In this document: one piece after another, positions 17,763-40,051 of the stretch
Numbering within the stretch: position 1 is the stretch's first letter
How the letters are laid out: each line of letters begins with the position of its first letter
Assembly (NCBI RefSeq): GCF_022539665.2
Contig: NC_081331.1
Location: forward strand, 1,302,001 to 1,366,000
Length of the DNA: 64,000 nt
Reading direction: 5' to 3'
DNA from: Daphnia carinata
Taxonomy: Eukaryota
Translations under genes and position numbers: made by a program
The notes under the pieces: model-generated
Told to the model about the DNA's origin: nothing
The model's input: the letters and a program-made list of their open reading frames with translations, nothing else
Database searches by the model: none

Positions 17763-20700
17763 TTAGCCGGTCTCCCACCGATACATCTGTACGACCTTAT
17801 CCTGGTCGACGTATTCGAAGATGTGAGGGGCGTTGATGAGGATGCCAATGGTGCCGGCCGTCGTCACGGCGAAGAACACGTACAACTGCAGACGATCGAT
17901 GACCATGGCCACGTACTTCCAGTCTTCGCGAATCTGTCAAATATCAAAAATTAACTTAAAAAATTAAGAAAAAAAAGGACAGAAACGAATGCTATACTGA
18001 CCTGCGTGTATTCGTCTTCGTTTCTCAGATGCTCGGCGATAAACTCGACAGCTTCGGTGGCTTTATATGCCTCCGGAGTGAGTAGGAGCGTTTCGGGCGG
18101 TTCGAGCACTTCGCGGCTGCCGATTGCAGCCGACCGTTCGTTCAGATTCATGAGTTCCTCGTTGGACGAGGTGGCGTGCAGTCGTTCGCAGCAATGCGGA
18201 TCGTGATGTTCACGCTCTCTTTCCCGCAGCTGTTCGCTGTTCTGTCGGCTCATCCGGCAGTCGGGATGATGCAAGTCGGCCAGTTCCATCACTTCCATTT
18301 TTCCTGCCGCGCCGCCGGCTGAAGGGTAAGGAAGCAAAGGCGGAGGTGGTGGAGGCGGTGGAGGAGGTTGACCCATGCCGGAAGAAGAGGTGCTCATCCC
18401 GCCGGCCATACTCATGCTCATACCCATACTGGTCGTGCTAGCCGCAGTTGCTCCTCCGCCGAAATTGCCGTAGCTGCCGTAGCCACCGGCCGGCGGCTCC
18501 ATCATCCACCGGAGGCGCGTTTTTTTAGGTCGTTTCATCAAGAGAAGAACTGGCAAATATTTAAGGAAGACCACCCGGATCCAGTTGGGCATGCGGTGTG
18601 TCCGCGGCCCCCTGAAGTTCCAGTTGATGATGACGACGGTGACGAGGATGGAGAGCGTGTTCATGATGAAAGTGAATAGGAGATACTTGGCGATGAGCGG
18701 GAGGACGAGCGAGGTGGGCGGCAAGATCTTGGAGACGAGCAGGAGGAACACGACAAGTGAGAGGAGAATACTGATGCCTAGCGTCACCTTCTCGCCGGCC
18801 TCGGCCGGTAGGTAAAAGACAAGGACGCAAAGGAAGGAAATGAGGACGGTCGGCAGGATCAAGTTGACCGTGTAGAAGAGCGTCTTCCGCCGGATCGTGA
18901 TGGAGAACGTGATGTCCATCTGGGTCGGCTTCGTGTGGTTGTGGACGTTGCGCTTGCCCGGCACCTCGATGATGTCCCACGTACCGGATTTCCAGTAATC
19001 GGATAAGTCGACGTGATGCTTGTCCAGGTAGAAATCCAGCGACACCTGGTCGCCGTTGAACGTCCACGAACCGAATTTCAGGAGACATGTCTGCTGGTCG
19101 AACGGGAAGTACGTCACGTCGATCGTGCACGAACTCTGTGTTTCACGCCGTCATTTTATTCCGTTCGTTTACAAGGATTTGGTGAATTTCTATTGTCAAT
19201 GTTTCGTACCTGATAGATGGCGGGAGGCACCCAAAGGACTTCACCACCGGAATAAATGAGAATGTTGCATTTGTAGCGAACTTCGTAGTTGCCATCGGCG
19301 CTGAGATCGGTTTCAGAAAAAGACAAGTATAGTTTAATCAGTGCCTTGCGTGAAACGTCGAAACTTGTATCTGTTTACTTGAAACTCAAGAGCAATTTCA
19401 AAAATCAACATTGACTGTTCTGCGGGATTCTTTTTTTCTTTTCTGCTTATTTGTGTTGTCATTGTGTCAAAGTACCAAGCAAGGCACTTTACACGAATGA
19501 ATTCGACAGTATAAAAGATGCGGTAGAATGAAATATCGGATTGGAAGGACCGCAAGACGCAATGTCAACTGCGAAAGCCTTATCGTGTTTATCCACGTGG
19601 TTCGTTACTTATTCGCCCTTCTCTTTCTATTACCTACTTTTGGCTTTCTAGCCTTTTTTTCCCTTCAGTGTAGCACACCAATAAACTATTACACATCCCT
19701 TCTGTGAGAGACGTGTGGGTGGGAGAAAGCAAAAGGAAATTTATTGAAGACGCGGAAGGGAGGAGTCAGGAAGGTCAAAATCGATACTACAGCGAGGGAG
19801 AATAACGACGAGCTACGAATATTTACAGGGCAATAGCCCTACTCAGAGGAGTTATATAATATTTAAAATATACGACACATCCTTAATCTTATTGCGTTTA
19901 TACACGCATACATGCCATATTTCTTTCCCACTACGCTATGCAAGCTACCGTTCGTTACATTGCAACTGGGTGACAGAGCCATCGCAAATTCCATAACTGA
20001 TATTTATGCATTTTCATTTCTGCTTTATTCGGTTTCTTGTGCCTCAAGTGTTATCAGTTTTTCTAACGCATATTCTGAACGATGCTTGCTGTCCAAAAAA
20101 AAAAATGGAGGAACCACAATGGTACAAGAATAACCATAGGGAATGATTGCGTTTACGTTTCTGTTTATCAAAGTTCAAAGAACAGAACTGCGTGATGTTG
20201 TTTGGAAGCGAACGATCACAAGGTGATGGTAATTTTGAGGTACGAAAAGCCGAAACCATTGTTCCTCCTTTTTTTTTTCTTTTTTCTTTAGCCACCCAAA
20301 TTTAACTGTGGACTGAAAGGCAAAAGGATACCAACAGCAATGGAGAGTAAAAAAAAAAAAAAATTCAATAATTGATAGGGTTGAATAGGGTTTCCTCTTC
20401 TAGCGGAATCACGCAACAAAAAAAAGCTAATAACACAAATCAACCGACCATGAAGATACTTCCAAAAGCTCGCATTCCCACTTGTTCTCTATGGATTTTT
20501 TCATTCTATTTCGCTTGCAAGGCTTTGCCCACTTTGCGCGCCCATTTCATCGAAAAAAGGTTCCAATTCAGCCCATTACGTTTTGTCACAAGTTTCAGCT
20601 TGAAGGCGTTTCAACCATATCGTTCTTCTGTAACTGATGCGCAACTGAGTGCCAGCAATCGATTCAAAACCTATGAGGGCCCTCTTAGGAAGGAAAGTCT

Positions 20701-23700
20701 ACCAATCTTGCCTCTCACCAACAGTCGGCACTACATTCGTAATGTAATAGCCGGAGATGGCACAACAGCAAATCGGGATCCACACATCACAGAAACGAGG
20801 AAAAACAAGGGCACGGTCTTCCCACGAAAATAGAGGCTTACTTATTAAAAAGTACGATGTCGGGCTTCCATACGCGATCCGGCGGCAAGCGAAGAACGTT
20901 GATACCACCGTAATCCGCCACGTCCCACTGCAGTTGATAGTCCTGCCAAGTCTGGTTTAATGAACGGGAAAAAATGAGATAAAACGGTGTTGAACGAGTC
21001 AATCAGGTCAACACGACATCAGCCATTGATCATATTCCAATTTCGTTACGAATGATCCGTGTCGCCCGAAAGGTAACGGAAACGTAACGACCCAACTATA
21101 GAAAACGGCATTGAAAAGAGAACTTACCACTCGGAGCCAAACGTTGGATTTCATCACCTGGTTTTTTTCGTTCTGCATTCAAGGAGACAAGAAAACGTCC
21201 AAGGATTATGGTCAATCACTTATGCATATATTGATAAGTGTACTTACGACGCTGATGAGCTGCGTGAATGTGAGTCCAAATTTGACTTCGACTTTCATGC
21301 TCATGTTTTGGACAGGCCGAACCAGCTTGTTGTAGCCGCGGAAGAGGTCGCGAACCAGCCGTTCCTCGTCTTCCGAACAAGATCCTATGTGCACACGTGT
21401 TAAAAGTAAAATAGCAAAAATTCTGGTTAAAGTAAAAAGAAACTACAATAGTTTTTGTAACGACCATTTTCGGCAAGCGAAGCGATCGATCGATTTCTTT
21501 CTCAGAAATCGATGGTTTCTTTATTTTGATTGACTTGCATTCTGTGGGCTTGCTTTTTCCCGTTTATGCTAGGGAAGCTGCATGAATGTGTGTGATCTTG
21601 TGAAGGTGATGACGTACGTCAACCTTCGAGTGTATACTAACTGCATCCACTGTTTGCATGCAAATATGCGTGTATTCCGAGTTCCGGTTCGTTGGACAAC
21701 GTCCATTACTTTTGCAACAACAGACGGTTGAATGGGTTTTTTCCTTTCGATGGCCATCGCTTATGATTGATGCAGACGTATATACGACTAGCCAACGTTT
21801 CCCTCTTATTAATACATACATCGGAGCTATATAGCGAAGGGGTATGTGGGACTCGATTCGAAGAGATGAAAGTCGATTGTTTCCCTTTAATGCCCGGTGA
21901 TCCTACCAAATAGGAGGCGGAGAGATTCTGGGACTACATCATCATGTATGTATTCAATGGTCCTACGTCTTTGCTCGAAATTTTTCCCTGTCGTCCTCTT
22001 CTTGTGTCTGTTTCATTCGATCGTGACAAAAGCAAAACTTCGCCCTCCCATAAAAATATGTCAGTCCATATAGCTGACAAGCCATAACTGGTACGCAACG
22101 CGGAATACGAAATTGCAGAGAGACGTCACTCATATAATGGGACTAGGGGGTTGTGTCTACGAAGATATATGGATGTGCCATTGTTTGCAGTCTATGTGTG
22201 TGCATCTATCGATTTCAACTTTAGCTGCAAATACAAACGCTAAGTTGACCAGAACATCCAACTTGTGGTTCGGAAACGAACGTGCAACTCCATCGGCCAA
22301 AAGAGTTGACTTTCTGCCAGCGAGCAGCTGCAAGTTAGGGACGCTAAAGAACCCTTAGTGTTAACGCACGATCAACTCGCTGAATGTCTCAAGTTTCCAC
22401 TTGTACTTAGGTTTCACCTGTTTCTTAATGAGCTTATTTTTCAACGTGTGTCACATTTGGATTCTGCAAAAAAAACAAAGGCATCTCCTGTTCAGGGGAG
22501 TTGCCTTCAGATGAAGCACTACAACCTGGAGCTTTTGTTTTGGCAGAAGAAATGTCTAGAGTCGTGTAAAAAATACCAATCAAGCCTGAAAGAGAGTCGT
22601 CAAGAGAATCTTAGTCTAAAAGAATCGCGGTATTTGTTTTTCCATTCGATATTGGTTTTCTTTCATCGTTCGTTTCCTCTTCATCTCGCTCGGACCGATC
22701 GATATTTTCGGAGATCCTTCGGTTCTCTGCACTTCCAGCAGCTTCGGCAGTGGCCTTTTTTTCCTTTTTCCGGCAGGCTCTATCGCTTCGTCTGAATGGA
22801 TTCACCAAGTCTAGTTGGACTCCACTGTTTCTTTTCCTCCTTCTTGCCTGCTTTCTACATCTGCGTTGATTGTAGCCTTACTTGTGTTCCTGTTTATGTA
22901 TAGCTCGCGATCTCCCCGTGTTCTTTTAGCCTCCCCTTTTGTCGCTTTGCTTTTCCCTGAAGTTTTGTTTGTACACACGTGAGCAAGCAAATAAAAAAGG
23001 AAAATAGAAAACAAAAAAATGTATATACTACTACATGTAACGAAATAAAGATAAAAATGATAAGCAAAGAAACGACGTCAATATTTATTGAACGACTGAA
23101 AAACGCAATGGCTCTCGCATCTCATCTGTCTCGACGTTCCAATTTTTTTTTTATACTTACGATCCATCACATCCATCTGAACTGTTGGTAGGTATAGAGA
23201 GCTATATCTATAGACAATTCGGCTATGTAGACAGCGTAGCTATTTACGCTATTGATTTATTTCTTTGTTTGACGTGGCTGCAAACGTTTGCAGGATCCAC
23301 AGACGCGGAAAAGACGTGGTCGCGGTCGTCGTAGCAAAATGGGATCCAGCAGATTGCACAGTTTTTTGTTTTCAATTTATCGGATGGTCAGAGCTTAATT
23401 CGTCTTTTCATTTTTGATTAGACCAAACTGGCTTTTTTTTTTGGCCTTCACAAATTGTACCTTAATACCCTCGCTTAGTGAAAGCAATCTGTTCCAACGT
23501 AGGAAGGAAATAATTACTTTTCGCTCGTATTGAACGTTAGACCGATGAGCAAGGTATTCGACGTTTATTACGTAATAGTGTACGCCTCTTGTTAATGATG
23601 GAACGTCTCATCTCTGCTTCCATTTTTCATTTAACATGAACGAGTTAGCGTGTTATGACGGCGAGCGCACCGGCACGTAATGCTGGATATGGAATCTCGT

Positions 23701-30014: not shown

Positions 30015-33000
30015 CTAAGGGACTATGATGTGCGGAGCCGAAAAAAGGACCGCTATAGTAGCAATGATGGTAAAGAGCGTGAAGAGGATCAGGCAAATAC
30101 GATCGACGACCATGGCAGCAAATTTCCAGTCATTGCACACACGTGATTCTTCTTCGTCGGTTCGTATCTTGTCGGTGATGACACGCAGCTCCTTGAGGAT
30201 ACCCGATAGTTCACGATGAGAGCCGAAGCAGTTGTGCAGCGATATGGTCTCGTCTTGACCTAATGCAGTCGAAAGAAAAAGAAGGTGAGCCCAAATGGTT
30301 TCAAAAATAGCATGCAACTTCAAATGGTAATACCAACCGCGTTTAATCTTACCCTGGTTAGGCCCCAGACCTCCACTAGGAGTGGAGACAACTCTTGGGA
30401 ACCCGGTGGGCACTCCCATACTAAGGGCCATGCCACTACCGACTGAGCTGAGCGTGCAACTGTGCTGCCGGAAGTCGTCGTCAATATCGAGCACGTTAGC
30501 CAGGAGGCTTCGCGACGAGCGTTCTTTCATTTCAATGTCTTTAATCTGTTTGCTGTTGGCCGCTGGACCTGCTGCTGGCTTTTGATCGTCCTTGTCAGTC
30601 GGCCTGCTCATCCGCAAGACCCATGGCAGCCAGTGCAAGAACACCGTTCGGACCTAGATTCATATTCGTACCACAATAATAGGAAACAAAACCAAAACAT
30701 AAGCCAGTTTTTAAAATGAAATAATTTGTATGTTAGTCCTATAGTTACCCATGGGGCCATTTCGTGAGTATCAGCATTGCGATGATGGTAATTGAGAATT
30801 AGCACAGTTGAAACCACCGACGAGGCCACCATGAACATGATACAATTGAAATAGGTTCCTATTTTTGTTTTTTGGTTTGGCGGTGCGAGGGGACGTCCAA
30901 GTTGGTACATGGAAAGAAAAGCCAGGGGAATAATAAAGAACAATCGTGAGAATAGCTCCCATTACCAGTGCAATAGAAACAGCAAACAAACAAACAGGAA
31001 AAGCAACAACAAATATACAACAACGACACAAACAAGTGAATATACGAAGGTGATATAAAAGCAGGCGACTTTGGGGTTGTGAATAATGGGAACGGTTTAG
31101 GGGCGGGTCAGGTTTTCAACGAATTTTTAGTTCGGTTTCTTTTTGGATTGCATGCTCTGCTTTTTTTGGTGGCCTGCCCCGACTCATTCGGCATTTATGA
31201 ACCATTTATACATCATTCTAAAGCCGCGTGTTACTTGGCCACTGGGAGGAGGGCGCGTTCGTCTTTAACCTTAATTTTTACTGAAGTTGTCACATCATTG
31301 GTACAATTTTTTGTTCTTGTTTAAACGAAACATCAACTAATCTCTTACGCCAGCTTTGCATCGTGATTTCAAATCGAGAGAATCATTTTAAATGTTTTCC
31401 CACAAAATATCGCTATTATTCTTTTAAAATAAATTTTGATTTCTTCTGTTCAGGTGATCAGATAAGTTTTTATGGGGAAGAGAGAAAACGGGAAGAAAGC
31501 AAGAGGTAGAAAACAGAATTGATAATGAGAGAGTGAGAGAGAGAGAGAAAGGAAGGAGTAAAAGGGGGAAAAGTAAGGATTTTATGAAAGGTAGTTGAAA
31601 CAAAGTGAATATGAATTTTGTCCACGAAACGCTAGTTGGCATCATCACTGAAAAAAAATTTCATTGAAATTTCATTAATGGTAATATGCTCTTTGAAAAA
31701 TCGTAGCACATGCAATTAAATGGTGTGATGGGAATTTGTTAAATACTGCACTTGATTGGAATAAAGTTAATTGCAAATCACGTCATTGGGGTGAAAAATC
31801 TTTTGAAATAAAACTTCAAAACCTTTCAAAGATATGCAAAAGCATTCCTCTTGGGGAGGGGGATAATCAGTGTCATCCAATGATTGATGTTTTAATTATC
31901 TCAATTTTTACAAACGTAAACCAAAACTTATGCTCAGAGTGAAACGGGTTTTTGTAGTTCGAGTTACGGTTATATTCGGGCGGGAAAACAATTCATTGTT
32001 CATTAGATGTAAAAAAAAAGGAATGCTTTAGTTCTCATAACGCACAGGTGTTTGATCATCTTATGAAAAAGGTACACAACATACACAGCGTCTGATAAAT
32101 GACAAAGCTAACCTAAGACTGGGACGGCATCCGAACTTTCGGGCAAGGTGTCGTATATCATGAGCGAAAAGACAGTTAGTGATAGCAGGATGGTCACACC
32201 TGCATCATAATCGGAAAGAAAAATTGAATCGACATCAGGCACGCGTAGTTTTTTACTCGCTCACATCACAGAGCAGCAATTATCTTCACAAAGCGAGTCA
32301 ACTAAAGCTCAACTCGAAAACAATGCGCACTTTAGTTCAAACTGAAAAGCTCCATAGGATAAAACCACATTGCTACAAAGCTTAGAAATGGCAGTAGTAG
32401 TTGTAGTAGTATGCGACATGTCGTTAGTCCGTCAACTTTCGAGCGATCTGTACTTCCCCAGACAATCTAAAAGCAGAAGTCGTTGAATTAGTACTTTGAT
32501 GCTATAAGTGTATAACGAAGCATTGTATGCAATTGTGCGTACGCGTCTTTGTGCACACATTTCGCGTTGGGACTACGGTGAAGAACAATCAATGACGCGC
32601 TGGTGAAAAGAGAAAAAAAAGGAGGGCACAGGAATGGACGGTAGTTGCATAGCCTCCTCCACCGCCAAGTAACACTGGTTGCTATACAGTGAAGCATCCA
32701 TTCGTGATGGCTACAAAGAGATTTGATTGTGGGTTTTTTTGTTGTTGTGTGTGTAAAGAAAAAGGGTCGAAAATGAAACTTAGAAGAATACGAGGGTGTC
32801 GGAATAGGAGGACAAAATAAGGTGGGCTATGGGTTTCGCTGTGCCAATGCGTTGGGTTTTACCTATGAGAGGCTGTGCAGATGCCGGCGGCATGGAAGAG
32901 GTGACGCTGTTTAAAAGGAAGGTGAGCGACAGGAGCACGGTGACACCTAGTAGGTGATCGGGCAAGGTGGAGACGAGGAGAGAAAGCGAGAAAGATATAC

Positions 33001-36000
33001 AAAGTGGGTTTCAAAAAATCAATAAGGGTTGCCATCTAGCGTCCCCGTTACAGGTCTAATGGTCTTAGCATTATTCGAAGCACCAGTTAAGACAAGAAAT
33101 AATGAATAGTTCAAATAAATGTCAGAATGTTGAAAAATAAAACACGTCTACAAAACATTACAGCTTCTCCCTCAAGTTTCCCTCGCGCAATCACAAGGAC
33201 GACAACAAGGGCAGAAAAAAAAAAATGCACATAGATATTAAATAGTTATCTACGGGCACAGAAGCCAGTTGTCACCGTGTCCCTCGTCGGTGTAATAGAA
33301 TATAGATTGATAGTAGGCGTTAGGCAATGACGCCCATCTGCTTCTTTAATTTTTCGACCCTCCTCCAGCAGAAAAAAACATTTTTAAATCAAGTAACAGG
33401 CCAGCCTCTCTTTTGTTTCATTGGTCATTTGTCTCCGCCTCGTCGCTAATCATTTTGAGCTTTTGATGGGGGAGAATGGGGCAAGGAAATGGGATGATTG
33501 TTATCAAGGTTTAGTTAGAGAGCATTAGAAAATAAAGGAAACGGTCTGGAATGGAAGTTTCGGTCGAGGTTTAGAGTAACCAAAGGATCACCTCCGTCGT
33601 AATCATTCATTATTATACCACCGATTGACTACCTAATAAAGGAACTGCATCTGACGTTGCCGGCATTGTTTCGGCCACCATATTTAGGAAGACGGTTAAG
33701 GAGAGCAAAATTGTAACGCCTATGAATTCAAGAAGTAAAAATTAATCCACGACGGACGAACAAAAAAGTTTAAAAGAGAGTCAAAGTAATAATTGAAATA
33801 AAAAGAAGGTAATAATTTACAAAAAAAAAGGTTTTTAGATGGTTGTTAGTAGAATGAAAAAAATAACGTTGCCCCTTTTTGCGATTAGGTTTAAACGATG
33901 CAATGCGCGCGTGTACTAGGAGGGGGTATGTACAGCGAAAAAAGTTCTTCGATTGACTTCGATTGCGTTCTGTAAACAATCAATATTGGCAACGAACATT
34001 AGTTTTCCAAAAATTAAGTTAACAATTGCTGGATATCCTTTTAGTAGACTGAGCTTTAGAACGGCAAGAGAAAAAATTCCAATACATAATTTTGAGCGCC
34101 ACGTTTCTTCTCCTACCTAGCGTTAATTTGGATCCGCAATCGTTAGTTAACGTGAATGATAGTAGCGTCATAGATGCAATGAGGAGACTGGGAAATATTA
34201 CGTTGCACCAATAATAAAGCGCTCGCCGGCGAATGTGCAGCGTGAACGTCGCATCGATGTATGGCTCCGGACAGCATGTGTAATAATGACTGGAAATTTG
34301 GCCTGGCAAACCTGGTCAATACATGGCATCACACTTTTGTCCTCATGAAATTGTCGACTATTTCAAAGGAAGAGATCGACTTTCAACGTAATTGAGAACA
34401 ACTGGTAATATTTAAAAAAAAAGAAATGTACTTTTCCGGATAGACGTTGCACTCGAATTCGTCATTCTGTTAAGATCCTCGCATTTCATTGTATGATTCA
34501 TAGATTTTAGTTGCATTTAAACGCAGGATTGAACGTCCTTTTCTTTCTGTCTGACTGTGTTTCGCCATAAACGACGCACGGGGTACTATAGTGGTCATCG
34601 ATGGGTTTCGGATAATTTACTCGCGTCATTGATCCTAAACGTTCTGGCATGGAACTAGGCGTTTCTGAAATGTCCGGTATCAGAAGAGAACAGCTGCGCA
34701 GCATTTATTTTTTTTTCTATTTTTTTTTTTTTGTAAAAAAAAAGTCCCTTAATGCGTGCGTTTGCATTCGTCATGGGTGCGCGCACATTGCCAGTAAAAT
34801 AGAGGATTAGCAAATATATAGTCTATTGCCATTGCCTTGATCGAGGTCCCAAATCGCCCATGGGCTACTTTTTAATGCACGTATAGTTTGCAGCTGTGCT
34901 ATCGTCAGACGGCCAAATGCTACTTTCGTATCGCCATCGTTTGCGTAAAAAACCAATTCGGGTCTTTGGAGGGGGGACACGGTGTGGATTTGAGAGGCCG
35001 GCCATTTAACAAATTTGCTCAACGAGTTGTGTTGCGTTGGCAACGCGATGCCATTCGGAGTGGACGACCATATACCGCCATATCAATCCTGAAATGAAAT
35101 ACGTACTTTCTTTTTCGTGTGTGAAAATGTTGGATAAATAATTGAAGAATGACCCAAAAAATTAATACGAAAAGATCAACTCATTTCTATGTGATAAGGG
35201 AAAAAGTGAGAAATAATGAACACAGTTATATAGAACCCATTAGAGCCTACCTAGAGAAAGTTTCTCGCCAGATTCGGGAGGAAGTGTGAAACCGAGGACG
35301 GCCATGGAGGCAATGAGCACGCAGGGAACGATCAAGTTGAAAAAATAGTAGAGTGTCCGTCTCCGGATCTCGATGGTGAAGGTGATATCCACGTAGGGTT
35401 CGGGGCAGCACGGGTAGTATTGCCATGTCCGTTTACCAGGCACTCCTGGTTTTCACCATCGTAGGTCATCAAATTTATCATCATTAATCAATTTACAGGG
35501 AAAAAGCAATCAGGGGCTAGTTATTTAATGGCTACGGCTAGGCGGAACAAGAGCCATAGAAGGAAACGTGCACAGTAAAGAGCAGTGTCATGCTTCCTAA
35601 AAGCTTCTCACTCTTATTTTTTCCATGCAACAGCCTCAATGCTTTATGCCACAAATAGCTATTAATTATACTGGGTATTAAAAATAAAATAATAAATTAT
35701 CTTTAGATTATTTTTTTTCCCTTGTGGTGTTAATAGCTTAGATTTATGATGAAGACGGTTTAAATCAAAACGAAATTTCTTTTTAAGTTTTAAGCTTTTC
35801 TTCTTTCATTTAGATCTCTTGAAAGAGCTTTATTGGGCAACTTAATTAACGGCTACGAAGATCAAATGGAAATTTGCATTCTACGAAAACCGGAAAAAGA
35901 TGAAATTTGCACGTAGGACTCGAAATTGAACTTTTACGAAAGTTGACAGGTATTTTTGACGAAAAAAAATAGGTAAAATAACAACAAAAAAAGATGGGGA

Positions 36001-37811
36001 TCCACTGTGGTTTCGGTGAATAACTTTATCGATGTTTTGGAATTTATCGAAGTAGTTGAGTGCCCGGCTGTAACGAAATTAGCAACTTTGTGTTTTGTTA
36101 AAAAAAAAAAACTATGACGATGGAACGGTGGTTGAAAACTTGTAAATGCATACTTTTTAGATTCCTGAGAGACGTGCCTAAGTGGCATGTTTGATTTCTC
36201 TATTTTACCCCAAGCACTTACTGGGCGAGCGCGCCGCGTGCCCCACCCTATTTAGCTAATGAGAAAGGATGATAGTTGAATCCCTTTTTGCCTCCCTACA
36301 AATGAAAACAGCAAATTTCCAACTGGCTCCCAAAATCCTGGAATAATCCCAAGCAGAGGCCGCGATTTTTCTTTAATTTGCTCACAACAATTACACGCTA
36401 TCTTACCGTTAGTACAATAAAAACGCATTAATTAGAGCAAGAAAAAGCAAGATACATATCTATAAATACATCAACAATCTACCTGCGAGTGCAACGTCTC
36501 TAGATACGCAAGACCATCACTTTCGCACAACAACAATGGCGCAATGTGCATTAATGAGGTGTTTGTCACATCACAAACTTTCATTTGCCTTTGTCAAAGT
36601 GTCAAGAGTGAGGTGTGGGGAGGTAGACTTTCTTCTTCGGCACTTGAGACTGTTACTGCAGTATCTTTCTCTCGATTTCCGGAGAAGTACTAAAAGTGAA
36701 ATCATCTTTTTTTTGTTCTCAATATACGTGCCCAAGGAGAAGTCTAACTCACACGAATGAAAATAAAGACTATGATATTATTAATCATGTCAGAAAACTA
36801 AAGGAAAAAAAACCAAAAGGCAACGGGGCGTATTCAAATCCTTATTGGGTGAAGGACTGAATAATCTCGTCATTAAAATGTCAAGGCAGTCTAATTGGTT
36901 CCTGCTACATGAACACTTGAAAAATCTACATATTTTCAGCAAATGCTTCGCCCGACTGGGAGCGCTAAGATACGTTCTGTATACATGTAAAGAGCAGCGA
37001 CATAAAGAAAATGATGAGTGCCACGACTTAAGAGCAAAAAAGAATTAGGAAAAATGAGTAGTTCAAAGTAGTGCGAGCAAGTAACAAAGGCCATACCCAG
37101 GAGATCCCATTCGCCGTTGGTATTGAAATTGCTAATGTCGCCGCCTTCTTCCGACTGCAGCGTCAAATCTAACTGTAAAGCCAAATAATGAAAATAATCT
37201 CATTTGTTTTACGAGTAGAGTATTTAAAACATTTAATAAAAATAGAATCAATTAGGTTTTAGGTTAACGTTGTTTGAATGCATTTCTTTCAATTCGTGGA
37301 TTGTCATAAAATTTAAAAGAAAACAGATGAATAGTTGATGATAGAAGGGATAAATTAGTTGGATGTGAGTGTCACTATTACCTGAAATCCATCGTAAGTC
37401 CAGCTGCCAAACTTGAGCTCACATTTTTGGTCGTCAAAAGGAAACCACGTAATGTCGATCTTGCAGGTGCTTTTGAAAATACCAGGAGGTAGATAACTGC
37501 AACTGCCGTTACTCCGGACCACCACGTTCGTTTGGTAAGTGCTGTCAAACTCCTCGTCGGCACTGCGCAACAACAAACAGATTAACCGTTTGCTACATAC
37601 AGTTACAAATTATTGCATCACCAATGTGATTGGCGACGAAAAAAGACTAGGTTTGCTTAAGAGGACAGGTCATCATTCGAAATAGATACCGGATATTACA
37701 CATATGTCAGAAAGTATCGTGTAAAAGGAGCTGATCCGGCTCAGCAAGATCGAGTGGAGAAGGGGAAATGTTACGTATGTTGTTATTATCACTGTCTTAT
37801 CTTCAAGTCCT

Positions 37812-37852
<41 letters not shown>

Positions 37853-40051
37853 CTATCTTGCCCTTTTCTTTTGCTACCGTCCTCTTCGATTGATTGAATG
37901 TTCCATCGGACATTAGGACATCACACGTAGGGTACATCGAATAAGAAAACTAAATAGAGTTACTTGTACTCAAACTTGGGCAACGCATCGAACGGTGTGT
38001 ATACGATATGCTGCTGGCTGTGGTGATCCCTGTTTGGCCAATGGCATTTTATTTTAAAAAGCCTCATCATATGGTGATGGAAACAAAGGAAGAGGCAAAA
38101 AAGGGACACCAACAGATAAGGAAGAAATAGGGCAACGTTTGCTGGAACGGCGACTGTTCAGTGTGTTTCACGTAAAGCTAGTGGATCAATACGGCCCACT
38201 GCCATTCTATACCGCCTCCATATTTATATATATATATATATATATATATACTGCAGAGCAAATCAATGATGAGGAACGAAATCCGAGGAGGAACGAGAAG
38301 AGAATCTTAAAAAATAGAGAAAGCGAAGGGGACTAGAGGCTATGGACGCCGAGGGAAAGTGCTCACCTGTTGTACATCAGAACGTCGGGCTTCCAAATAC
38401 GAGTGGGCGGGATCCGGAGGTCCTTGACGCCACCAAATTCGGATGAATTCCACCTCAGATTGTAATCGTTCCAGTCCTGTGCCGATTCAATGGCGTGAGA
38501 CGAAAAAGAAAAGAAAAAAAAAAACAACAAACAAAAAAGAAAATCAATGGAGAATGCGTGTACACGACCACATTTAATGGCTCAATGCAACGGGTTAGTG
38601 ACTTGGTCAAAATATCAAAACTACTGCGAAAATGCAACCAGTCCAGAGTCCCTGCTCACGGTCTAATCGAGACCTAACGTACAATTTAAATAAATTTTTT
38701 TTACAATTATAAAAGGGGCTGTCAATGTTGTAACACAGCCATTTTCGTAGATACTGGTTAGACGTGAGATATTACGTAAAACATTTCTAGAGACAAGCTT
38801 CAAAGGAGCCTCACTAGATGGAAATGTAAAGTGAATCGATATTTCTGGCCGGAGCGTGAAATAAACGATTTTCTTCCGTTCCCTTTACCCCGTGACAATG
38901 CGTCAGGTGAGTGTCAAGCGAATTTCGGGACCCGCATTGAAAATAGCTCCATTCAAAAAAAGGTTATATAGGACACAAAAAAAATTAGTGCAACTGATTT
39001 GCATGAAGCGAGCTCAACAAGGCAGACACGCCCATCGCAAGTAGCATGACGGGAAAAAATGGAAACCATTTGTCGGCACGCTACTTTGATTAATCACGCA
39101 AGAAAACAATGAGCAGACAAAAAACCAGCCTTACCATTTTCAACCACATGTTTGTAATGAGCAGCTGGTTCTTTTCATCCTGGAGAGCAATAGAAAAGAA
39201 AAAAAAATCAGTCAATTAATGAGCGAAATAGAATGGAGCATTTTTCTTGACAAGTTTATGGAAACTTCAGACAGCCTCTACGAATTTATTCGCACATCAA
39301 ATGATTTCATCAAAAGGCAAATCAAGCTTCTCTTCCCCTACAATAACGGGGTATTACTTTTTAATTCCACAAATGCATTGAATCGTTTGGGAGCCCATTT
39401 TTCTAATTAAACTCAATCGAACGAACTACGTATAACTTTAGCTTTGGTGCCTTCTCCTGCCTTATCAATTGCCATCCCTGCAACAATTCGATTTCCTTCC
39501 GCCACAGCTTCCAACTTAATTCTGCACAATGCAGTCGTGCCTCTTAAAGTTTTCATACGCCCTTTAACATAAGAGTCGAAAATGTTTTTACGAGTTGAGC
39601 CGAAACCCCTTACAGGCTGTAAGATATACGCGCTACATAAAGACACAATAAAAGTTTAAGGCACAAACCGAAAATAAAACTCGTTTCACTTAAGCCATAA
39701 ATTAGCATAACGACTCAGAAGCAAAGCCTTTACACCCAGTCTAATTTTATTCAGGCCATCTCCATGGTTTTACAATTTAGCATTTCAGATTCAAAATGGC
39801 AGACTTTTTCCCCTTTTTATCTTACGGTTTAAAAAACCCCATCACTTTCAAAAAGATGTTTGAAACCAAGCGTAGATTGCATTTGACATGAAAATTAGAA
39901 AATGGTCTTACCACATCAATGATTTGCATCAGCGTGATACCAAAGCTGATTTGTATGGGATCCGATTCGTTGGAAACGGGTCGTTCCAGGACGTTGTACT
40001 TGTCAAGGAGATGATGAAGCAATTTTTTCTCGTAGGGCCCCTGCAGCGACA
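30015..40051 (-). CDS. nAChRalpha7: Nicotinic acetylcholine receptor alpha subunit of the insect alpha5/6/7 group, best matching alpha7; 5'-partial (signal-peptide exon not found)
   Basis: Exons: 40051-39912 ([11 protein letters not shown]), 39179-39135, 38476-38367, 37562-37382 (Cys-loop, WTYDGFQ), 37172-37097, [35445-35251 or 34311-34117], [33719-33633, 32946-32863 or 32199-32113], 30858-30749 (TM3), 30653-30353, 30259-30015 (TM4, TAG). The vicinal YxCC defines an alpha subunit. [31 protein letters not shown] and SVVSTV are alpha7-like rather than alpha6-like. Exon sizes 140/45/110/195/87/110 follow the alpha7 pattern. Confidence 0.9.
32113..32199 (-). CDS. nAChRalpha7: alpha7 alternative TM2 exon 8c ([30 protein letters not shown])
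   Basis: 87 nt, gatgcag| ... |gttagc, phase 1-1, no stops. Not present in the ORF track. Confidence 0.85.
32863..32946 (-). CDS. nAChRalpha7: alpha7 alternative TM2 exon 8b ([29 protein letters not shown])
   Basis: 84 nt, ctactag| ... |gtaaaa, phase 1-1, no stops. One codon shorter in the TM2-TM3 loop. Confidence 0.85.
33633..33719 (-). CDS. nAChRalpha7: alpha7 TM2 exon 8a, canonical ([30 protein letters not shown])
   Basis: 87 nt, ttcatag| ... |gtagtc, phase 1-1. Not present in the ORF track. Confidence 0.93.
34117..34311 (-). CDS. nAChRalpha7: alpha7 alternative exon 7b (loop C + TM1 + TM1-TM2 linker, divergent copy)
   Basis: 195 nt, gaccag| ... |gtagga, phase 1-1. Translates as [66 protein letters not shown]. 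Confidence 0.85.
35251..35445 (-). CDS. nAChRalpha7: alpha7 exon 7a (loop C + TM1 + TM1-TM2 linker, canonical copy)
   Basis: 195 nt, aaccag| ... |gtaggc, phase 1-1. Translates as [66 protein letters not shown]. Confidence 0.94.
37816..37848. repeat. (TC)n microsatellite in alpha7 intron 4
   Basis: Uninterrupted TC run. Confidence 0.95.
38226..38250. repeat. (TA)n microsatellite in alpha7 intron 4
   Basis: Uninterrupted TA run. Confidence 0.9.

Follow-up and report, generated by a model that had tools for sequence, protein, structure and literature searches.

Two arrays of alternative exons and predicted intronic pairings in a likely alpha7-type nicotinic acetylcholine receptor gene of Daphnia carinata

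The 64,000-nucleotide (nt) stretch of Daphnia carinata contig NC_081331.1 analyzed here (positions 1,302,001 to 1,366,000; hereafter, the window) carries a gene for a subunit of the nicotinic acetylcholine receptor (nAChR), most likely an alpha7 orthologue, in which two copies of exon 7 and three copies of exon 8 lie between constitutive exons 6 and 9. The gene and the exons concerned are listed below in window coordinates, with the evidence used to place each; TM denotes a transmembrane helix and dN/dS the ratio of nonsynonymous to synonymous substitution rates.

30015..40051, minus strand: host gene, nAChR alpha7-type subunit, exons 2-11; exon mapping, all combinations translated.
37097..37172, minus strand: constitutive exon 6; mapped by homology, RNA splices to 7a.
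35251..35445, minus strand: exon 7a, 195 nt, encoding loop C, TM1, and the GEK filter, the main form; splice sites, RNA joints.
34117..34311, minus strand: exon 7b, 195 nt, encoding loop C, TM1, and a filter with Ser for the -1' Glu; frame, splice sites, dN/dS.
33633..33719, minus strand: exon 8a, 87 nt, encoding TM2 and the TM2-TM3 loop; splice sites, RNA joints.
32863..32946, minus strand: exon 8b, 84 nt, with Phe at 13', Ser at 17', and Ser at 20'; splice sites, RNA joints.
32113..32199, minus strand: exon 8c, 87 nt, with Ser at 15', Leu at 16', Tyr at 19', and Asp at 20'; splice sites, RefSeq model XP_057371594.1.
30749..30858, minus strand: constitutive exon 9 (TM3); mapped by homology, RNA joints from 8a and 8b.

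The five duplicated exons have the coordinates given in the initial annotation, and each shows an AG acceptor, a GT donor, phase 1-1, and an open frame. They are tandem homologous copies of equal phase and near-equal length with intact splice sites, the arrangement expected of a mutually exclusive array. Exons 7a and 7b share 58% of amino acids (60% of nucleotides), and 8a and 8c share 68% (62%). Joined to exons 2-6 and 9-11, each of the six combinations reads through to the natural stop without an internal one, and the translation of exons 2-11 with 7a and 8c is identical to D. carinata RefSeq protein XP_057371594.1 at 495 of 495 amino acids. No exon 1 was found within the 64-kb window. When every exon peptide was searched against the window by tblastn, no extra copy of exon 3, 7, or 8 was found in the gene, and the remaining matches fell in a neighboring beta1-like gene. 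The 2 x 3 array, splice sites included, recurs in locus L002, which excludes a chance origin. Exon 3 is single here (39135-39179, minus strand); alpha7-type models of mayflies, termites, a stink bug, a springtail, and a prawn have two alternative exon-3 versions, of which Daphnia appears to have lost one.

The encoded subunit has the Cys loop, the YxCC of loop C, and the four TM helices of the nAChR alpha7-like group, and its top Protein Data Bank matches are all vertebrate alpha7 chains (E about 1e-159). Over the constitutive regions, it is identical to the named Tribolium alpha7 at 224 of 280 residues, versus 207 of 280 for the named Drosophila alpha6. The alpha7 state is present in six of nine diagnostic columns, the alpha6 state in one, and neither in two. 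Exon 7a sits inside a clade of alpha7 exons in the exon tree (support 97/93), and exon 8a matches the insect alpha7 exon at 28 of 28 residues. One neighboring gene serves as a synteny marker for alpha7.

17778..21388, minus strand: nAChR beta1-like gene, located by tblastn, about 8.6 kb downstream on the same strand.

Clustering of alpha7 and beta1 genes in insects is described in the available text of PMC2064938 and PMC12309072, and the beta1-like neighbor extends this linkage to Daphnia. The phylogeny of constitutive exons proposed in the initial annotation was built with 35 rows (11 rows left out) and rebuilt with 32; both trees place the gene in the alpha7 group (support 80/85 and 81/88, respectively). 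Counting against that placement, this support is weak, and an approximately unbiased (AU) test did not reject alpha6 (p = 0.163), for which reasons alpha7, though likely, is not proven by the tree alone. As sequence identity, diagnostic columns, exon clades, and beta1 linkage all favor alpha7, we judge an alpha6 identity unlikely, and the original assignment to alpha7 is on balance borne out.

Exon choice is predicted to alter the pore. Residue positions were taken from an alignment to vertebrate alpha7, and pore residues follow the standard prime numbering. Loop C has its tyrosines, its vicinal cysteines, and the aspartate after them in both 7a and 7b, and the remaining binding loops are encoded by constitutive exons; the earlier claim that the array can rebuild the agonist site was therefore overstated, whereas its claim of changed pore residues holds for the filter in 7b and for TM2 positions in 8b and 8c. 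The two exons 7 differ in the residues flanking loop C, in TM1, and in the filter, where all nine cladoceran-type 7b copies have Ser or Ala in place of the -1' Glu that is kept in 15 of 15 insect, malacostracan, and barnacle 7b copies. The 20' acidic residue is gone from 8b. In vertebrate alpha7, replacement of the GEK glutamate abolishes permeability to Ca2+ but not to monovalent ions (PMC2064938, available text). Since 7b lacks this glutamate, channels containing it are predicted to have lower Ca2+ permeability, and altered ion permeation and gating are predicted for the isoforms generally.

Conservation was examined against loci L002 and L001. Compared with L002, exon 7a is identical at 194 of 195 nt, and 8a, 8b, and 8c are 100% identical (87/87 nt for 8c); constitutive exons 9 and 10 stand at 86-90% (dS about 1.1 for exon 9; 90% identity for exon 10). 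Exon 7b keeps its length, frame, and splice sites in L002 at a dS of 0.97 and a dN/dS of 0.13, its dN/dS against L001 is 0.06, and three pairwise comparisons at dS 0.5-1.0 gave a range of 0.06-0.19. The per-exon test suggested in the initial annotation thus found purifying selection on every exon copy, with no exon frameshifted or lost in L002. By these measures, 7b is a maintained coding exon, and a pseudoexon reading was judged unlikely on the low dN/dS and the preserved frame, length, and splice sites. That 7b might be a decaying relic no longer spliced in Daphnia would accord with its much faster evolution than 7a (16 versus 0 nonsynonymous differences against L002), with the missing -1' Glu, and with the fact that no spliced 7b read was seen; yet dN/dS is low, the exon is structurally intact, and the loss of Glu is common to all nine cladoceran-type copies, and we give this idea hardly any credence. 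Near-invariance is not limited to the alternative exons, because the first 82 nt of constitutive exon 11 (30178-30259, minus strand) match L002 at 81 of 82 positions, possibly as a splicing or RNA-editing element. Also identical in L002 are 98 nt before (33044-32947) and 68 nt after (32862-32795) exon 8b, together with 46 nt before 8a, none of which is explained by the helices predicted below.

Use of the exons in RNA was then assessed. The evidence consists of assembled contigs, all from relatives, in 7 of 14 runs from 5 studies (X1, X2, X3, X6, X7, X9, and X11); contigs carry no frequencies, a cover or joint missing from them does not equal absence, and the results are the joints listed. Exon 6 is joined to 7a in runs X1 and X6 and, with a small offset, in X2, X3, X7, X9, and X11. 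Joints of 7a to 8a occur in X2, X3, X7, and X11, and of 7a to 8b in X1, X3, X6, X9, and X11, while exon 9 is reached from 8a in X2, X3, X7, X9, and X11 and from 8b in X9 and X11. Several of the canonical joints have fewer than 30 letters on the shorter side. Public annotation gives a similar picture: from a Daphnia protein cluster of 30 members, 15 were listed, and the 12 of these that are full length all use 7a alone, whereas their exon 8 is 8a in six, 8b in three, 8c in one, 8a plus 8c in one, and missing in one. Exon-8 choice is therefore already present in public annotation. Use of 8c is seen in RefSeq D. carinata model X2 (XP_057371594.1) plus one ambiguous joint only. Single splicing between flanking exons is thus seen in RNA for 7a, 8a, and 8b, in the RefSeq model only for 8c, and in thrips and crab models only for 7b, which in a D. 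galeata fragment model is fused to 7a. The alternative use of exon-8 copies proposed earlier accordingly stands, through 7a-8a-9 and 7a-8b-9 contigs and the RefSeq X2 model; among the junctions put forward for checking, 7a-8a, 7a-8b, 8a-9, and 8b-9 were found, while those of 7b, 7-8c, and 8c-9 were not among the joints listed.

To define the spread of the arrays, homologues were collected from the best 120 of 1383 matches to a 7a query and the best 120 of 481 matches to a termite 7b query. Among the matches listed, two loop C/TM1 copies are present in alpha7 models of termites, a cockroach, a cricket, locusts, stick insects, a planthopper, a bug, a louse, aphids, an isopod, an amphipod, decapods, and a barnacle. 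Most two-copy arthropod gene models join 7a and 7b, and 7b stands in place of 7a in models X1 of Thrips palmi and X3 and X7 of Scylla. Termite-like loci L003-L005 have both exons 7 in genomic DNA, with splice sites checked in L004; single exons were found in the beetle and fly alpha7 models examined and in locus L007. In the exon-7 tree, 14 of 14 7a copies form one clade, and the 7b copies fall in three groups outside it. AU tests rejected neither a single origin of all 7b copies (p = 0.342) nor a cladoceran-specific duplication (p = 0.104), and one old duplication giving 7a and 7b is the simplest reading of these sequences. For exon 8, a mayfly alpha7 has four variants, namely an 8a type (28/28 residues identical to the window), an 84-nt 8b type (70%), an 8c type (20/28), and a fourth without a Daphnia counterpart. 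Because alpha6 genes and an ostracod gene hold three of these types in the same order, we infer that the TM2 array is likely older than the alpha6/alpha7 split. The uniqueness implied by the initial annotation does not survive, as the array is widespread in pancrustacean alpha7 and alternative exons of aphid alpha7 have already been cited in print (PMC4011867).

The introns between exons 6 and 9 contain conserved elements whose predicted pairings could govern exon choice.

31198..31255, minus strand: predicted docking site in the intron that separates 8c from exon 9, 58 nt long and invariant in L002 (58/58); from a pairing scan.
33357..33426, minus strand: predicted selector after 8a (core 33398-33390 + 33372-33358); dock duplex -45.6 kcal/mol.
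32652..32675, minus strand: predicted selector after 8b; dock duplex -51.4 kcal/mol over 32716-32651, within an 82-nt block identical in L002.
36486..36498, minus strand: conserved element U, upstream partner in a predicted helix of 13 bp with 7a in its loop; identical in L002.
34443..34455, minus strand: conserved element S7b, 132 nt before the 7b acceptor, the exact complement of U; present in L001 and L002.
34992..35003, minus strand: conserved element D7a, with a predicted 12-bp pairing to 33399-33410 that encloses 7b and 8a; identical in L002.

A scan of the dock over the 6.2 kb between exons 6 and 9 placed its best partner after 8b (-51.4 kcal/mol) and its second after 8a (-45.6 kcal/mol), the next being at -32.6 kcal/mol, and the same two sites came out on top in L002. 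In a control at a coarser step, the real values were -51.1 and -43.3 kcal/mol; among 60 dinucleotide-shuffled controls, the lowest energies reached were -43.7 for the best partner and -41.3 for the second. Each selector follows immediately on its own exon, and both are predicted to engage the same dock nucleotides, so that one conserved element is complementary to several selectors, one per exon. The 8a selector core lies within an 88-nt block identical in L002, its 3' arm is kept too, and one change in L002 lengthens its helix; it adjoins and partly overlaps the D7a partner (33410-33399). When 55 conserved intron segments (1013 of 5590 nt) were searched without bias for helices, three reached the cut-off of -18 kcal/mol or better, namely dock with the 8b selector, U with S7b, and D7a with 33410-33399. 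Three helices at -18 arose in 0 of 150 base shuffles, and at a -15 cut-off in 1 of 150. Both U:S7b arms are kept although the introns are only about 41-44% identical overall. This geometry fits the docking/selector and bidirectional pairing models described for other genes in the available text of PMC4691838. In termite-like L004 (6076-6120, 7986-8030), the top-ranked partner of the Daphnia dock core (-28.3) lies right behind 8a and the fourth-ranked (-23.5) right behind 8b; a shared motif there did not exceed shuffles (141/300), which leaves this as a hint, and no conserved 11-bp helix around 7a/7b was found there. The arms listed by a repeat search were all AT-rich and uninformative.

Taken together, we consider it likely that this is an alpha7 gene with two old arrays, in which 7a, 8a, and 8b are used as alternatives in the RNA of relatives, with 8c and 7b probably in rarer use and the choice probably made by conserved base-pairings in the introns. 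From the observed exons, their conservation, and the 7a-8a and 7a-8b joints, we infer the following steps. Pairing of the dock before exon 9 with the 8a selector would hide 8b and 8c; pairing with the 8b selector would hide 8c; and an unpaired dock would leave 8c for use. Pairing of U with S7b would hide 7a and so allow 7b. The least sure step, and the weakest because D7a contains a GC palindrome, would have D7a pair just after 8a, hiding 7b and 8a and biasing 7a toward 8b or 8c. The products would differ in their pore rings, 7b lacking the -1' glutamate and 8b having Phe at 13' and no acidic residue at 20'.

Several observations weigh against this account. The RNA runs belong to relatives, none being tied to D. 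carinata itself. Among the listed joints of the seven runs, there is no 7b joint, with 7b covered only by unspliced contigs (X2, X3, X7, and X9), and no 7-8c or 8c-9 joint; 7b is used in 0 of the 12 listed full-length Daphnia models (15 of 30 cluster members listed). Run X1 has offset, tandem-like 8a-8b and 8b-8c joints, making tandem inclusion possible, and run X3 has an in-frame joint of exon 6 to 8a (33722-37101) that skips both exons 7. Of 302 collected proteins, 53 join 7a and 7b, a count inflated by search ranking. As for the helices, they derive from two to three sequences in which the arms are the same and compensatory changes are absent, and the null for the unbiased search shuffled single bases only. 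Exclusion is probably leaky. The six subunits claimed initially are all in frame, but three of the six isoforms are unobserved and no spliced 7b was seen in Daphnia, so "six channels" was too strong; of the proposed combinatorial exclusive splicing, exon-8 choice stands, while the tandem-like joints, the exon-7 skip, and the 7a+7b models weaken strict exclusion. The D. magna RefSeq model X5 lacks any exon 8; this form and the exon 6-8a form of run X3 are likely non-functional.

The lack of a Daphnia 7b joint among those listed would also suit a gene in which exon 8 is a true array and 7b serves chiefly as an add-on behind 7a; its additional helix would give a non-conducting or dominant-negative subunit that tunes receptor number, with three channels rather than six. 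Tandem 7a+7b models exist for termites, a cockroach, locusts, stick insects, bugs, aphids, decapods, a barnacle, and D. galeata, and an Ixodes alpha6 form with exons 3a and 3b in tandem is non-functional in oocytes (PMC13578988). However, such models may be annotation artefacts, the thrips and crab models contain 7b only, and the U:S7b helix would hide 7a; moreover, almost every lineage has retained the tyrosines and vicinal cysteines of loop C in 7b, residues that would be useless on the cytoplasmic side. We regard the add-on as unlikely.

The missing compensatory changes could alternatively mean that proteins and splice-site strength choose among the exons, the intron blocks being protein-binding or RNA-editing elements and their complementarity incidental or a duplication relic. 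Invariance does exceed the helices, taking in whole exons 7a, 8a, 8b, and 8c, the 98 and 68 nt around 8b, and the start of exon 11, and A-to-I editing is known in insect alpha6 and alpha7 (available text of PMC1919356 and PMC2064938). Against this stand the position of each selector right behind its own exon, the convergence of both selectors on one set of docking bases, the survival of both U:S7b arms in introns that are otherwise poorly conserved, and shuffle controls that did not match the pairing results of the dock scan and the unbiased search. Protein-driven choice seems to us improbable, somewhat more so than the add-on.

Choice by intronic pairing remains our preferred reading, and the two arrays may be coupled, because the D7a partner adjoins the 8a selector. 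A bolder version, which we offer tentatively and think rather doubtful as a whole, is an intronic RNA switchboard in which the stretch after 8a pairs with either the dock or D7a, linking the choice of ligand loop and filter to that of the pore. Water-flea 7b would then provide a Ca2+-poor alpha7 by splicing, and the arrays would date from early pancrustaceans and have apparently been pared down in, for example, beetles and flies.

Related systems are known. Insect alpha6 has mutually exclusive exons 3a/3b and 8a/8b/8c (available text of PMC1919356 [Jin et al. 2007] and, for Tribolium, PMC2064938). As in alpha6, the TM2 exon of the window gene is repeated in tandem, with position, phase, and order agreeing, 8a being nearest the first alpha6 copy (24/28) and 8c last, like the third; the nucleotide-level invariance of an exon-8 copy reported there for alpha6 is seen here too. 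In contrast to this likely alpha7 gene, every alpha6 row examined shows one exon 7, and the 84-nt 8b copy was seen in alpha7-type genes alone. The window gene differs further in having one exon 3 rather than 3a/3b and no counterpart of alpha6 8b, whereas insect alpha7 keeps one. For aphid alpha7, PMC4011867 (available text) credits potential alternative isoforms of "exon 6 and 7" to Dale et al. (2010). These resemble the window in being two adjacent alternative exons. Acyrthosiphon pisum RefSeq models hold such copies (X1 combines a duplicated loop C/TM1 exon with a TM2 exon of the 8c type), which makes identity with the two arrays described here probable; aphid 7b keeps its -1' Glu, unlike that of the window. 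The available text of PMC4647701 names alpha7 among spliced subunits. Bombyx alpha8 (alternative exon 7) and insect alpha4 (exon 4/4') are likewise nAChR genes with duplicated alternative exons (PMC2045683, available text), but these are other subunits and other regions (TM2-TM3 and loops E/B, respectively), and the alpha8 duplication is recent.

In the docking/selector systems of Dscam, 14-3-3xi, serpent, and RIC-3 (PMC4691838), as here, a dock lies downstream, a selector follows each upstream exon, and an upstream arm pairs before the second exon. The present helices differ in being predicted only, without covariation, and in that one of them spans two exon clusters. The available main text of that paper makes no mention of nAChR or Daphnia, and none of the docking-site papers found contains the phrase "acetylcholine receptor." Nothing on alpha7 exons was found in PMC13690283, PMC13471630, or PMC8634148, and no paper on the Daphnia array turned up in the literature searched, which left subscription journals mostly outside. 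The arrays are probably in part already annotated and in part published; what is new here is the map of conserved, predicted intronic helices and the cladoceran-specific loss of the filter glutamate in 7b.

Neonicotinoids and spinosyns act on the family to which alpha7-group receptors belong, and ecotoxicology uses Daphnia as a standard animal. Studies that use one cDNA per subunit would miss the pore variants. The array seems to be old and to occur widely beyond the beetles and flies, which are well studied. The numerous models with 7a+7b may be erroneous or may point to a regulatory form. The compact Daphnia locus, with 6.2 kb and four named helices, makes both nAChR exon exclusivity and the coupling of two arrays by RNA structure testable.

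Two further observations concern other loci. An alpha7-like gene in L008 (7031-10307 and 3309-4195) includes four stretches resembling exon 9 (TM3) and two resembling exon 4, and the second half of its exon 5 occurs twice; it is either a further exon-array gene or a set of tandem paralogues. Finally, scorpion and spider alpha6/7-like models (P0236, P0243, P0275, and P0297) also vary in the TM2 exon, which suggests that exon-8 alternatives reach the chelicerates.

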